NCBI GenBank assembly: GCA_963708025.1
Contig: CAVPSB010000016.1
Coordinates: 192,001-256,000 of the forward strand
Length of the DNA stretch: 64,000 nt
Origin: an uncultured Candidatus Rokubacteria bacterium
GTDB lineage: Bacteria > Methylomirabilota > Methylomirabilia > Rokubacteriales > DASRDR01
Direction of reading: 5' to 3'
In this document: positions 2,233 to 6,187 of the stretch, one piece after another
Numbering within the stretch: the stretch's first letter is position 1
Layout of the letters: each line of letters opens with the position of its first letter
Notes under the pieces: generated by a model
What the model saw: the letters and a program-made list of their open reading frames with translations, nothing else
Database searches by the model: none
Told to the model about the DNA's origin: nothing
Position numbers and translations under genes: made by a program

Positions 2233-2260
2233 TTGACAACCCGCCTGCCGTTGCTAGAGT
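2233..2260 (+). promoter_or_regulatory. sigma70-type promoter
   Basis: TTGACA-16 nt-TAGAGT with extended TG, upstream of the lipoprotein gene. Confidence 0.55.
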
Positions 2261-2311
2261 GAGGCCGATCGCCGGTCGGTTCCCGGCCGGGCGCCGCGGA
2301 GGGAGGCCAGC

Positions 2312-3023
2312 GATGCGCTCCTCTTCCCCCATCGTCACCGCGGCGCTTCCTCGTCCACGCCGCCCCGTCACCGGCCCGGCAGCAGGAACCGGCCGGACCC
2401 CGTCCCCGGCGAGCCGGGGTCTCGCCGCCCTCCTCGTGCTGACCCTCGCGGTCGGGCTCGCCGGCTGCGCGACGAAGACCCAGACCGGCGCGCTGGTCGG
2501 CGGTGCCGCGGGCGCCGGGGTGGGGGCCCTCGTCGGGGCGCTCATCGGGGGCCCCCGCGGAGCCGCCATCGGGGCCGGAGCCGGGGCACTCGTCGGGGCC
2601 GGGGCCGGCGCGCTCGTCGGGCGGTACCTCGACCGGCGGGTCGGGGACCGCGCCACGGCGGCGCGTCAGGTCGGGTACGTTCCCATGAGCGGCAACCTGG
2701 TCGAGGTCCAGAAGTCGGAAGTCGAGCCGCTCCCCGCCAGGCCCGGTCAGAGCGTCGTGCTCCGGGTGGAGTACAGCGTCCTCGCCCCGAACCCGGACCA
2801 GCGCGTGGACCTGAAGGAGTGGCGGGCGATCCGGAAGTCCGGGGAGACGGTCATGGGGCCGGTCGAGCGTGACGCGCGGCGAGAGCAGGGCGTCTTCACG
2901 TCGGCCTACCAGTTCCAGGTCCCGAGCAACATGGCGCCGGGGGAGTACACGGTGCTCACGGTTCTCGAGACCGGCGACGGCCAGAAGCGAGCGGCGAGCG
3001 AGGCCCGACTGGTCGTGCAGTGA
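2312..3023 (+). CDS. Glycine-zipper lipoprotein (start uncertain)
   Basis: Lipobox LAGC followed by GALVGGAAGAGVGALVG glycine-zipper repeats. Confidence 0.75.
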
Positions 3024-3053: not shown

Positions 3054-3461
3054 CTACGGAGCCGGCTGGCTCTCCACGCGTTCGCTCCACCGGAAGACGA
3101 CGGGCCGCTCGGTCCGCTCGATCCGCGCCACGGCGGTCGGGTAGCTGAGCACCTGGGTGACCGGGGAGCCCGGCCGCGGGCTGCTGAGCGTCACCGTGGC
3201 GACGATGCCGTCGTTCGTGAGGGCCACCTCCGTGAAGCGGAGGCGATATCCTCCGCTCCTGCGCTCGCCCGCGGACGCCACCAGGTAGGTCGAGGCGCCG
3301 TCGTGCACGACGCCCGTCGCCGCGCCCGAACGGTTGGCCCGGAGCCAGTCCACGACGGCGGGCGGCCGCTCCTCGACGGACGGCTCGCTGAAGGCGATCG
3401 GGGTCGATGCGGTGGCCACGAGAATCACGGCCGCGCCCAGGCGGCCCGCCGCCGTCAGCAC
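3054..3461 (-). CDS. PrcB C-terminal domain protein
   Basis: YLVASAGERRSGGYRLRFTEV...VTQVLSYP matches the PrcB_C pattern; N-terminal signal-like segment. Confidence 0.7.
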   Translation of the reverse strand: MLTAAGRLGAAVILVATASTPIAFSEPSVEERPPAVVDWLRANRSGAATGVVHDGASTYLVASAGERRSGGYRLRFTEVALTNDGIVATVTLSSPRPGSPVTQVLSYPTAVARIERTERPVVFRWSERVESQPAP

Positions 3462-3519
3462 GACACCCGGGTCGGCATCGACGCTTCGTCACCAGGCCGT
3501 CGCCTCGAGCGAGGCATCG

Positions 3520-4498
3520 TCAGCTTCGGGTCGGGCCGGCGGCGAGGTCCGCCGCTCGCGGCGCCTCGAGGTTGACCACCGGGTAGCCGCGGTCGCGCCA
3601 GCCCTGGAAGCCGCCGGCCAGCGGGCGGACGCGCTCGATGCCCCGCCGTCGCAAGATCAGCGCCACCCGGGCGCTGGAGGCCTCGTTGGGTCAGGTGCAG
3701 TAGAGCACGATCTCCCGGTCGCGCGGGATCTCGGAGGTGACGCGCCTCCAGCTCCTCCGTCGTCAGGTGGAGCGCGCCGGGAATGATCGACGGCTCGCTC
3801 TCGAAGTCCACCGGGTGGCGGACGTCGACGACGACCAGGTCCTCGCCGGCATCGAGCCGGGTCTTCAGGTCCTCCGGCGTGATCCGCGCGATGCGGATCC
3901 GGCGCAGGAAGCGCTGGCGCGCGACGTACTTCCAGGCGATGTAGCCGACGAGGGCCGCCGCCAGCAACGCCACCAGCCCGGTGCCCAGGCGCGAAACGTA
4001 GGCCGCGACCCGCTCGAGCTGATCGCTGAACACGTAGCCGAGCCCGACGAAGACCCCGACCCAGATCAGCCCGCCGAGGCAGGTGAACGCCACGAAGCGC
4101 AGGCAGGGCATCCGGACGATCCCCGCCAGCGGGGGCGCGGCGGTGCTCAGGCCCGGCACGAACTTGGCCACCAGGAGCGTGCGCGCCCCCTGCCCGCTGA
4201 AGGCCTCCTGCGTCCGCCGCACGCAGGAGTCGGGCTCGAGCGAGATCCGGCACAGCAGGCTCAAGACGCTGGCGCCCCGGATGCGGCCGATCCAGTACCA
4301 GACCACGTCGCTGGCCACCGAGGCGACCAGGGCCAGCGCCACGACCAGCCCCAGGCTCAGCCGGCCGCTGCCGGCCAGGGCGCCGGCCGCGAGCAGGACC
4401 GGCACCGCGGGGATCGGGAGCCCGAGCTGCTCAGCCAGGACCCAGCCGAAGACGACCGCGTAGCCGTGGCGGACCAGGAAGTCGAGGGAGTCACCCAT
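3520..4498 (-). CDS. DedA/VTT-rhodanese fusion, candidate selenoprotein (1-bp frameshift near 3733; in-frame TGA at 3691-3693)
   Basis: DedA motifs EQLGLPIPA and AKFVPG; corrected frame reads EIPRDREIVLYCT-UGA-PNEASSARVALILRRRGIERVRPLAGGFQGW. Confidence 0.85.
3658..3676 (-). promoter_or_regulatory. Candidate bacterial SECIS hairpin
   Basis: On the mRNA, CAGCGCC-CGGGU-GGCGCUG (7-bp stem) begins 14 nt after the UGA. Confidence 0.6.
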
Positions 4499-4506
4499 CG
4501 CCTCTT

Positions 4507-4588
4507 TTCGGGACCTCCCGCCCACCCGATCCTTCGACGGCCTTCGGCCTTTGGCCCCCCTCCCCCACCCACCGGGGGGAGGGGGGAG
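4507..4588. repeat. GC-rich REP-like palindromic repeat, copy 1
   Basis: Exact 21-bp TTCGGGACCTCCCGCCCACCC shared (inverted) with 26082-26102; exact 20-bp GACGGCCTTCGGCCTTTGGC shared with 29562-29581. Confidence 0.75.
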
Positions 4589-4701
4589 TCGGACGCCCCC
4601 GATTGCTTCACAAAGTCGCTCAGTCATTCGATGCGCCCCCGGCGTCAACCGGTGCGCCGCTCGCCATCCGGCGAGTCTCGCCCCCCCGGTCGGAGCGGAG
4701 T

Positions 4702-5250
4702 ATGATGAGCGGCGTGATCGCCGTCCACGTCGTCGCCACGGGCGCCCCGGACTACTTCACCCGTCGCGAAGCCCATCGCCAGGCCCACATCGAGCGACTC
4801 GTCGAGCTGCGCGGGCGCGGCGCCCTCGTCGGCGGGGGCCCGGCGCCCGACGGTCGAACCGCCGAGATCTTCTACCGCCTGAGGCGCCCGGCCGAGCTGG
4901 CGCCCGTGGTCGAGGAGGACCCCTACTACCGGGGCGGGGTGTGGACCGCATACGCCTCGCGGAGCTTCTCCCAGTTCGTCGAGCCGTGGGAGGTGCCGCC
5001 GGTCGTCCTCGACGGCTCGCGGCGCGCCACCGTCGTCGAGGGCCCGACCACGGACCCCGACATGGCCCAGCTCGCGCTGGTCGAGCTGCGGGGCGGCGGT
5101 CGCCTGCTCTTCGGCGGCCTCCTCGACGGTCCGCTGACGCTCGCGGTCATGCGCTCGGCCGATGCGGCCGAGGCGACGGGCTGGCTGGCCGAGACCGGCT
5201 TCTGGGCGTCCGACCGCCTGGCGGCCCGACCCTGGCTCTACGTGCTCTGA
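4702..5250 (+). CDS. YciI-like tandem-domain protein
   Basis: RREAHRQAH...LVGGGP...EDPYYRGGVW is YciI-like; degenerate second half. Confidence 0.65.
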   Translation: MMSGVIAVHVVATGAPDYFTRREAHRQAHIERLVELRGRGALVGGGPAPDGRTAEIFYRLRRPAELAPVVEEDPYYRGGVWTAYASRSFSQFVEPWEVPPVVLDGSRRATVVEGPTTDPDMAQLALVELRGGGRLLFGGLLDGPLTLAVMRSADAAEATGWLAETGFWASDRLAARPWLYVL

Positions 5251-5260
5251 GCCGGAGCGC

Positions 5261-6187
5261 ATGACTCCGATCGAGCGGGTGCGGGCGGCGCTCCAGGGCC
5301 GGCCCGTGGACCGCCCGCCGTTCAGCATCTGGTACCACTTCGGCCTCCAGCACGCCCCGGCCGAGCGGGTGGCCCAGGCCCACCTCGAGTTCTTCGACGC
5401 CTACCACCTCGACTGGCTGAAGGTGATGAACGACTACTCCTACCCGATGCCGGACGGGCTGGAGACGCTGAGCGATCCGCGCGACCTCGCGCGGCTCCGG
5501 CCGCTCGAGGTCACCCGCGGCTCGATCGGCGAGCAGCTCCGGGTGGTGCAGATCCTGACCCCGGCCCTCCGGGGTCGGGGACTCTTCGTCAACACCGTCT
5601 TCAACGCCTGGAACACGCTCAAGCGCAACGTCGTGAAGGACGCGATGGAGCCGCTGATGCGCGACCACCCCCGGGAGCTGGAGGCCGCCCTCGGCGTGGT
5701 CAACGACACCCTGACCCGCTACGCGCTGGCGAGCCTCGAGCGCGGCGCGGCCGGCATCTTCCTCTCGGCGCCGGCCACCGCGGAGTCGCTGACCCCGGAG
5801 CAGTACGAGCGCTTCATGCGGCCGTTCGACCTGGCCCTGCTGGAGGCGATCCGCGACCGCGGCGAGTGCCACGTCCTGCACGCCCACGGGTCGCAGCTCT
5901 ACTTCGACCGGCTGCTCGACTATCCGGTTCACGCCATCTCCTGGGCCGACCGGGCCGGCGGGCCCACGCTCGCCGAGGCGCGCCGGCGAACCTCGCGCGT
6001 GCTGGTGGGCGGCATCGACCACACGACCTTCCCGTACGTGTCGGCCGCCGCCATCCGGGCCCAGGTGGGGAGCGCCGCCGCCGAGGCCGGACGCGACCGG
6101 CTCCTGCTCGCCCCGGGCTGCGCCGTTCCCACCTACAGCTTCCCCGAGCTGATCCGCGCCGCTCGCGACGCCGCGACCCGGGCGTAG
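5261..6187 (+). CDS. Uroporphyrinogen decarboxylase family protein
   Basis: ERVRAALQGRPVDRPPFSIWYHF, LHAHG, LLLAPGCAVP. Confidence 0.85.
   Translation: MTPIERVRAALQGRPVDRPPFSIWYHFGLQHAPAERVAQAHLEFFDAYHLDWLKVMNDYSYPMPDGLETLSDPRDLARLRPLEVTRGSIGEQLRVVQILTPALRGRGLFVNTVFNAWNTLKRNVVKDAMEPLMRDHPRELEAALGVVNDTLTRYALASLERGAAGIFLSAPATAESLTPEQYERFMRPFDLALLEAIRDRGECHVLHAHGSQLYFDRLLDYPVHAISWADRAGGPTLAEARRRTSRVLVGGIDHTTFPYVSAAAIRAQVGSAAAEAGRDRLLLAPGCAVPTYSFPELIRAARDAATRA

Follow-up and report, generated by a model that had tools for sequence, protein, structure and literature searches.

An in-frame UGA very probably read as selenocysteine in a DedA/VTT-rhodanese gene of an uncultured Rokubacteria bacterium

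The stretch of DNA analysed here, called the window, comprises 64,000 nucleotides (nt) of contig CAVPSB010000016.1 from an uncultured Candidatus Rokubacteria bacterium (assembly GCA_963708025.1, positions 192,001 to 256,000). On its minus strand lies a gene that joins a DedA/VTT membrane domain to a rhodanese domain, and within the rhodanese domain an in-frame TGA is found at 3691-3693. Comparison with homologues indicates that this UGA is read as selenocysteine (Sec) with the help of a hairpin of the selenocysteine insertion sequence (SECIS) type, so as to give a full-length product. A probability of about 0.88 is assigned to this reading. Such a recoding had been put forward in a first-pass annotation of the window, and the TGA column in the homologues, their cysteine (Cys) counterparts, the selection acting after the codon, the hairpin and the sel genes of the genome are all in its favour.

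Two frames of the minus strand have to be read together to recover the gene. The frame that opens with the ATG at 4498 runs for 255 codons, covers the DedA/VTT protein and the start of the rhodanese domain, and has the C-terminal end ITPEDLKTRLDAGEDLVVVDVRHPVDFESEPSIIPGALHLTTEELEARHL (EELEARHL). One base over, the second frame reads EIPRDREIVLYCT-TGA-PNEASSARVALILRRRGIERVRPLAGGFQGWRDRGYPVV, with VLYCT-TGA-PNEASSARVAL around the in-frame TGA, and when followed to the end of the gene it reads EIPRDREIVLYCT-TGA-PNEASSARVALILRRRGIERVRPLAGGFQGWRDRGYPVVNLEAPRAADLAAGPTRS and then a further TGA. The in-frame TGA and this terminal TGA (3520-3522) are separated by 56 codons. The removal of one base near 3733 restores a single frame, and both the in-frame TGA and the 56 codons after it are then found as they had first been described. 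Without the one-base insertion, the gene has about 325 codons, and its unshifted orthologues have 317-338.

The database homologues of the N-terminal part provide the first line of evidence. As many as 105 of the best 120 are exactly 268 amino acids (aa) long, and all 12 that were fetched end in VLYCT or VLYCS, i.e., at the TGA codon. Judged from the sequences, these uniform ends are gene callers stopping at one conserved codon. It had been expected that gene callers would truncate a gene of this kind; this is the case for the relatives, cut at 268 aa, whereas the window's own annotated product (P0003) was read on in the wrong frame past the shift and reached 347 aa.

TGA occupies the column in all 28 homologous loci from 40 related genomes, with the same reading after it (locus L051 is a 132-nt partial match from which the motif is absent), and also in all 10 more distant copies of the same phylum. 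In a phylum sample of 201 genomes, 88 had a match at an E value of 1e-30 or better. Residue 269 is covered by 119 of the phylum matches, and one or more in-frame TGAs occur in 108 of them, the TGA column itself being confirmed for this tally in the fetched loci only. The 11 matches without TGA are the window's copy (wrong frame), three with Cys, one with Ser (TCA), three with Ser/Glu at residue 269 and three in which the loop lacks a cysteine. One copy, L058 (G065:C293), has TCA (Ser) for the Sec codon, SDD for PNE and Ser for C83 of its DedA domain, together with an intact hairpin; it looks like a recently inactivated copy.

The best 80 loci of a species-representative genome collection include 61 with TGA, 9 with TGC, 5 with TGT and 5 that could not be parsed; these are counts and not frequencies, as one of the two search patterns behind the set held LYCTCP and so favoured Cys forms. 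The record titles assign the TGA forms to Rokubacteria/Methylomirabilota, many Acidobacteriota and Nitrospirota, and further bins that carry them are labelled delta proteobacterium, Planctomycetota, Dormibacterota and Clostridia. By the same titles, most of the Cys forms are from Nitrospira. When the distinct sequences were pooled, TGA stood at the column in 95/95 TGA forms, and TGC or TGC's synonym TGT in 17 Cys forms, which supplies the Cys/TGA pairs foreseen for this column. Some of the genomes are unpublished: L043 (G038) was counted with the TGA forms, and G119 and G163 are part of the 119-match phylum tally only.

In alignment A1, which holds two TGA forms and 14 full-length Cys forms, Y266, C267, T268, C269, P270 and E272 are invariant. 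The first-pass annotation had given YCxCPNE as the motif of the Cys homologues, and all 14 indeed carry YCTCPNE. The codon of Cys267 is TGC in 39 of 40 sequences and TGT in one. Further, among the 150 nearest representatives (50%-identity clusters of a 1.8-billion-protein library), 44 stop at residues 267-269, and 71 continue past this point with a Cys in each of the two loop positions.

It may be argued that the TGA is a sequencing or assembly substitution for TGC, or that TGA has been reassigned to another amino acid, and at least one assembly-type error does lie nearby in the window. The codon itself had been set apart from the indel noise of the window, and 3691-3693 has no variant among those listed, at public contig depths of 398, 196, 55 and 13. 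The TGA is also present in independent assemblies and in short-read contigs. TGA is otherwise a normal stop, since it ends this gene and 19 of 27 orthologues (the others using TAG in 6 cases and TAA in 2), which speaks against any global reassignment; a dedicated tRNA-Sec is present together with selA and selB. An error or a reassignment at this codon has next to no chance of being the explanation.

The second line of evidence is the selection on the codons that follow the TGA. The Nei-Gojobori method was applied to 400 random pairs of the 95 distinct TGA-form segments. The median ratio of nonsynonymous to synonymous substitution (dN/dS) was 0.222 for the 37 codons after the TGA (375 usable pairs) and 0.220 for the 13 codons before it (273 usable pairs). 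The conservation past the UGA that the recoding demands is present, with dN/dS at 0.22 on both sides.

The fold likewise continues through the codon. The AlphaFold2 model of the unbroken orthologue P0123 (mean predicted local distance difference test, pLDDT, 87.8; predicted template modelling score, pTM, 0.79) has nine helices over residues 3-200 and one rhodanese domain, with a strand at 262-266, the loop C267-T-U-P-N-E272, a helix at 273-284, a strand at 290-293 and a helix at 296-302. Foldseek matched it to rhodanese structures with a probability of 1.00, and for 3tp9 the root-mean-square deviation was 1.6 A over 105 columns. Of the split domain in the window, the C-terminal piece reaches 27.8 bits against PF00581 (threshold 22.2 bits) and the N-terminal piece 20.9 bits. 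As the fold continues beyond the codon, a product that terminates at the TGA would be without part of the rhodanese domain; in the model, a chain ending at residue 268 would be short of the active-site loop and of a third of the fold, with one of its strands and two of its helices.

These observations bear on the simplest alternative, in which the TGA is an ordinary stop, the product is a DedA protein of 268 residues that ends in a rhodanese stump, and the stretch after it is non-coding or a remnant. Gene callers annotate the relatives in just this way, and TGA does serve as an ordinary stop in the genome, including at the true end of this gene. However, the downstream dN/dS of 0.22 equals that upstream, 95 distinct sequences, from several phyla by their record titles, have retained the TGA, the Cys forms read straight through the column, and the stop product would lack the loop, strand and helices named above. 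An ordinary stop is, therefore, very hard to sustain.

The hairpin that would direct the recoding of the UGA is located just 3' of it. As was noticed at first, a perfect 7-bp stem with a G-containing loop, CAGCGCC-CGGGU-GGCGCUG, starts 14 nt past the UGA; its folding energy is -13.3 kcal/mol, and its conserved core is the 6-bp stem AGCGCC/GGCGCU. In the accessible part of a 2026 selenoproteome review, the bacterial SECIS model has a loop of 3-9 nt, a stem of 4-16 bp and a minimum free energy of -7.5 kcal/mol or lower (PMC13188914). According to the same part of the source, the first two loop positions include a G, in most cases with G/U after it, and 16-37 nt separate the UGA from the loop (PMC13188914). 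With a loop of 5 nt (CGGGU), a stem of 7 bp, a UGA-loop distance of 21 nt and an energy of -13.3 kcal/mol, the hairpin lies within all these limits, in agreement with the SECIS element first suggested at this place.

Comparison of the two kinds of homologue is more telling than the folding energy. Two spurious pattern matches and the single Ser form were left out of the counts. In the TGA forms, all six core pairs are present in 91 of 95 and five pairs in the other 4, whereas only 5 of the 17 Cys forms have all six. The codons that make up the stem are nearly frozen: Ser +6 is AGC in 94/95 TGA forms, Ala +7 is GCC in 92/92, Val +9 is GTG in 81/81 and Ala +10 is GCG in 95/95. The synonymous entropy of the TGA forms at these four positions is about 0, against 0.8-2.2 bits at the flanking conserved four- and six-fold codons. 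In the Cys forms it rises to 1.37 bits at Ala +7 and 1.33 bits at Ala +10, and Ser +6 is AGC in 12 and AGT in 2 of the 14 that have Ser. The six hairpin codons have a median dS of 0.21; elsewhere it is 1.1-1.3. In three distant TGA forms, Ala +7 has become Val (GCC to GUC), and the pair is kept, changing from C-G to U-G.

The loop codon follows a similar rule. Arg +8 is CGT in 48 TGA forms, CGG in 45, AGG in 1 and CGC in none, while CGC is used in 8 of 16 Cys forms. Across the aligned TGA forms, this usage is exactly the G-[G/U] pattern of the model. Because the synonymous sites are frozen in the TGA forms but drift in the Cys forms, the hairpin is probably under constraint at the RNA level and acts as a SECIS element.

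How often Sec and Cys have replaced each other was followed on an unrooted tree of 109 proteins (91 Sec, 17 Cys, 1 Ser), from which ten rows were left out (4 with a frameshift or stop, 2 pattern errors, 4 duplicates). The Cys forms are small groups inside Sec-dominated clades. At least eight Sec/Cys changes are required, and six of them are forced by well-supported branches. This fits repeated and partly recent replacement of Sec by Cys, the direction being deduced on an unrooted tree.

The machinery needed for decoding had been named as a check on the recoding, and selA, selB, selC and selD were all found in the same genome, each above its curated cut-off. The selA (598 bits) and selB (372 bits) genes adjoin the tRNA-Sec gene (76 bits; anticodon tca by ARAGORN), and selD (398 bits; C7:91381-92304, L001) contains one in-frame TGA of its own. 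A second selD-like match (270 bits; C23:88505-89419, L002) is part of an open frame of 833 residues and may belong to a fusion protein.

Besides the gene in the window, the genome carries an unbroken second copy of DedA-rhodanese type (C2:374674-375621, plus strand), 53% identical to P0123. It has TGA at the same column, reading LVLYCS-TGA-PNEATSARVAL, and the same hairpin, and it groups with L048 and L045 in a clade other than that of the window's orthologues. Another rhodanese with an in-frame TGA (C10:48513-48794, minus strand, L154) has a signal-peptide-like start and reads VPVVLY-TGA-ACPHRL; Sec would here replace the first Cys of a C-x-C loop, giving UxC. A Cys paralogue of the latter (ILYCACP) is present about 2.5 kb off, at C10:45836-46132.

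The extra base that splits the gene in the window needs a separate account. Contigs of four public runs were aligned to 3400-4600, the best run containing 0.41 of the sampled words. The base is absent in run X1 from two bridging contigs that account for all of the depth of 20.4; in the bridging contigs of the other runs the figures are 6.93/6.93 (X2), 3/5.4 (X3) and 3.4/3.4 (RNA run X15). Every bridging contig, in all four runs, thus lacks one base at one of the two positions given in Table 1, and the C near 3733 that was first taken as superfluous is indeed not found in them. One of these contigs, 149 nt long, has a single other difference. P0004, which is 97% identical to the window's N-terminal part, is unshifted and reads EARHLEIPRDREIVLYCT (ARHLEIPRDREIVLYCT). 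Two few-contig assemblies, L033 (G010) and L050 (G018), have frameshifts upstream of the TGA at positions other than the window's. Since the bridging contigs are without the base, P0004 is in frame and frameshifts occur elsewhere in L033 and L050, the extra base is most likely an indel error of this assembly. The X15 RNA contigs over the TGA and the hairpin come from relatives (5-7 differences in 44-198 nt) and are at most a weak hint at transcription.

A different view of the insertion accepts the selenoprotein family as real and takes this copy for a pseudogene: the insertion would be genuine, and the organism would rely on its second, intact copy. The insertion is present in the assembly as given, and an intact paralogue does exist at C2:374674-375621. 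Against this, the base is absent from all bridging contigs of the four runs, including the 149-nt contig; the codons past the shift are intact and fully conserved, with no other lesions; and frameshifts at other places of the same gene in two few-contig assemblies are the pattern expected of long-read indel error. A genuine pseudogene is accordingly regarded as improbable.

Several points weigh against the selenocysteine reading of this gene and should be set against the evidence above. No run contained more than 0.41 of the sampled words and the source strain is probably not among the runs, a circumstance that leaves the pseudogene view some ground. The energy z-score of the hairpin is -2.4 over 26 nt but -0.5 in a 60-nt context; hairpin energy was dropped as evidence, not being distinct from the GC-rich background, and the comparative data were used instead. 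A scan of 3400-3900 with Rfam, on both strands and at E <=10, returned mir-4660 and ALIL at chance level and no SECIS family. No double-sided compensatory covariation was found in the stem among the TGA forms, where the stem hardly varies. The hairpin is intact in 5/17 Cys forms and in the one Ser form; these are interpreted as probable recent conversions. Against NF041203 (rhodanese_LYCAU), the best-scoring curated family for the rhodanese domain, P0123 scores 84 bits, P0124 80 bits and the C2 paralogue, the best of the genome, 75.5 bits, all below the cut-off of 115. The choice of the canonical cysteine depends on the alignment: in two ungapped HMMER alignments to 6mxv, one for each of its domains, U269 falls on the Cys of YCGGGFRS and YCGSGFRS, and in a gapped alignment to 3tp9, C267 falls on the Cys of YCRTGG. 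Lastly, gene neighbourhood as a clue to function had to be dropped, as it is not conserved across phyla and lends no functional support.

With the UGA read as Sec, the gene would give a membrane protein some 325 residues long, made of a multi-helix DedA/VTT domain, a strongly basic linker and a single-domain rhodanese with the loop C-T-U-P-N-E. Sec would be inserted at codon 269 in a SelB-dependent manner, directed by the in-frame hairpin 14-15 nt downstream (6-7 bp, loop C-G-G/U-G-U), and for the decoding the SelB, tRNA-Sec, SelA and SelD of this genome would be available. The selenol of U269 may be the nucleophile of the rhodanese loop, and the invariant Cys267, two residues upstream, may resolve it as a selenenylsulfide. 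By the positive-inside rule, a linker rich in Arg and Lys marks the cytoplasmic side. The linker after the last membrane helix is of this kind (KYVARQRFLRRIRIAR), and the rhodanese domain is therefore placed, by prediction, on the cytoplasmic face. The protein would then work as a membrane-tethered chalcogen (sulfur/selenium) transferase or reductase, perhaps on something that the DedA domain moves or holds. A transferase role is what the domain family suggests, and the enzymatic mechanism, taken by itself, is offered tentatively, at somewhat less than even odds.

The DedA domain carries a near-invariant motif, LCRISLEPDSCVRRT, with two cysteines, C83 and C92 (residues 83-92; window about 4223-4252). 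It is present in 93/94 pattern-parsed rows and in 113/115 Sec- or Cys-type representatives. Within the phylum, residue 269 was lost in four lineages, and in three of these a DedA cysteine is missing as well. A thiol relay between C83/C92 and the C-x-U of the rhodanese domain was considered and is not supported among the 150 broad representatives: 71 have all four cysteines (C-C-C-C), 8 are without a DedA Cys and keep the loop pair, 10 show a changed loop pair alongside two intact DedA Cys, and 2 are changed at both places.

A more ambitious proposal is a membrane chalcogen relay, in which DedA would bring a sulfur or selenium compound (e.g., selenite or thiosulfate) to the cytoplasmic face, where the Cys-x-Sec pair would capture or reduce it as a selenenylsulfide or perselenide. 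A connection between a DedA protein and selenite uptake in Ralstonia metallidurans is drawn in the accessible part of one review (PMC11422209). The relay is unlikely on present grounds. If true, it would make this the first selenoenzyme of the DedA superfamily and would point to a route of selenium/sulfur acquisition or detoxification common to several soil and groundwater phyla.

The features of the gene are collected in Table 1. The genes adjoining it in the window encode a PrcB_C-domain protein (3054-3461, minus strand), a glycine-zipper protein (2259-3023, plus), a YCII-related protein (4603-5250, plus) and a URO-D-like protein (5162-6187, plus), and none of the four is regularly found next to the selenoprotein gene elsewhere. 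Of 108 loci, 25-32 have MarR, short-chain dehydrogenase, nitroreductase and YceI genes upstream; judged by their locus numbers, these clusters belong to the species-representative set (genome_contigs), with titles that are mostly Acidobacteriota. In the 24 of the loci L023-L071 that have flanking open reading frames, a recurring neighbour was sought and none occurred in more than five. Just upstream of the gene start, at 4507-4593, lies a G/C-rich palindromic stretch (cccccctcccccacccaccggggggagggggg) that is a dispersed repeat: a 101-nt query gave 592 high-scoring segment pairs with blastn-short in its own genome, and public soil contigs cover the repeat at a summed depth of 650-2680, against less than 60 over most of the gene.

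Table 1. Positions, in window coordinates, of the gene and its features
Feature	Coordinates	Strand	Remarks
Whole gene, predicted DedA/VTT-rhodanese selenoprotein	3520..4498	-	ATG 4498-4496, terminal TGA 3522-3520
VTT/DedA membrane domain	4034..4414	-	Residues 29-155 of the N-terminal frame; Pfam PF09335 59.9 bits, cut-off 33.9
Rhodanese domain, split by the frameshift, TGA inside	3577..3880	-	Pfam PF00581, NF041203, Foldseek
One-base insertion within CACCTCCGAG (minus strand)	3733..3737	-	Bridging contigs lack one base at 3734 or 3736
TGC codon of Cys267, partner residue of the C-x-U motif	3697..3699	-	Invariant in alignment A1
In-frame TGA, predicted Sec (U269 in orthologue numbering)	3691..3693	-	Comparison of the TGA column
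Predicted SECIS hairpin	3658..3676	-	5' arm 3676-3670, loop CGGGU 3669-3665, 3' arm 3664-3658
True stop codon TGA	3520..3522	-	Conservation stops there

The consequences for annotation are direct. The database proteins of the fetched relatives are cut at 268 residues, three of them being named 'VTT domain-containing protein' by NCBI, and the enzyme's active site is lost to users of such annotations. With this gene, the bacterial selenoproteome gains a member that is embedded in the membrane, in Rokubacteria/Methylomirabilota, Acidobacteriota, Nitrospirota and other labelled lineages. The 95 frozen hairpins of the TGA forms, contrasted with the decaying hairpins of 17 Cys forms, make an unusually clean natural data set on the minimal SECIS. 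The fusion may also tie the poorly understood DedA family to sulfur/selenium chemistry.

Rhodanese selenoproteins have been known since the Sargasso Sea survey, as far as the accessible part of that report goes (PMC1088965), and a Methylomirabilota genome with 63 selenoproteins is attributed to Deng et al. 2026 in the accessible part of the selenoproteome review (PMC13188914). None of the words DedA, VTT and SNARE is used in the accessible text of this review, nor are DedA, VTT, rhodanese, SNARE, Methylomirabil or Rokubacteria in the main text of the deep-Sep paper. In the literature searched, no description of a DedA/VTT selenoprotein or of a DedA-rhodanese Sec fusion was found; the tables of Haft & Tolstoy 2025 and Deng et al. 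2026 may list one.

Among known systems, the DedA/VTT proteins (PF09335) are the relatives of the N-terminal 200 residues, which match above the Pfam threshold. The NCBIfam equivalogs for DedA/UptA (NF052604, NF052605, NF008102) give 47-65 bits against cut-offs of 236-300; for the UptA undecaprenyl-phosphate transporters in particular, NF052604 gives 61 bits (cut-off 250) and NF052605 gives 53 bits (cut-off 300). The present protein differs from the DedA/VTT proteins in its LCRISLEPDSCVRRT motif, its C-terminal rhodanese domain and its predicted selenocysteine. The UxxxxU rhodanese selenoprotein, which has two Sec, is likewise fused to a membrane module; however, the partner is a different one, and the score is only 17-19 bits against a cut-off of 805. 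YgaP of E. coli is a membrane-anchored protein. The rhodanese fold of YgaP (5hbo, 5hbl) and of GlpE (1gmx) matches the one described here (Foldseek ranks 44 and 47; E 0.0048 for GlpE), but both have only one catalytic Cys and lack Sec as well as a DedA domain. With C267 as the canonical cysteine, the loop of the present protein also exceeds the Pfam profile by two residues (44 residues on 42 positions).

The closest known system is NF041203, which appears as rhodanese form 3, with a CxU motif, in the accessible part of the 2026 review (its reference 13; PMC13188914). The L-Y-C-x-U motif, the position of Sec two residues after a conserved Cys and the coexistence of Cys and Sec forms are shared with it. 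The window's C-terminal piece scores 55 bits. NF041203 is a stand-alone rhodanese of 126 profile positions, whereas here the rhodanese domain makes up residues 201-308 of a fused protein some 325 residues long; the motif reads LYC[TS]U here and LYCAU in the family name, with the same spacing and a different middle residue. The rhodanese domain is, therefore, probably a fused, divergent relative of NF041203 and not a member by the curated test. The comparison as a whole points to a genuine selenoprotein gene, consistently mis-annotated and served by a minimal SECIS, in which the rhodanese selenoprotein is of a kind already known and the fusion to DedA would be the variant.

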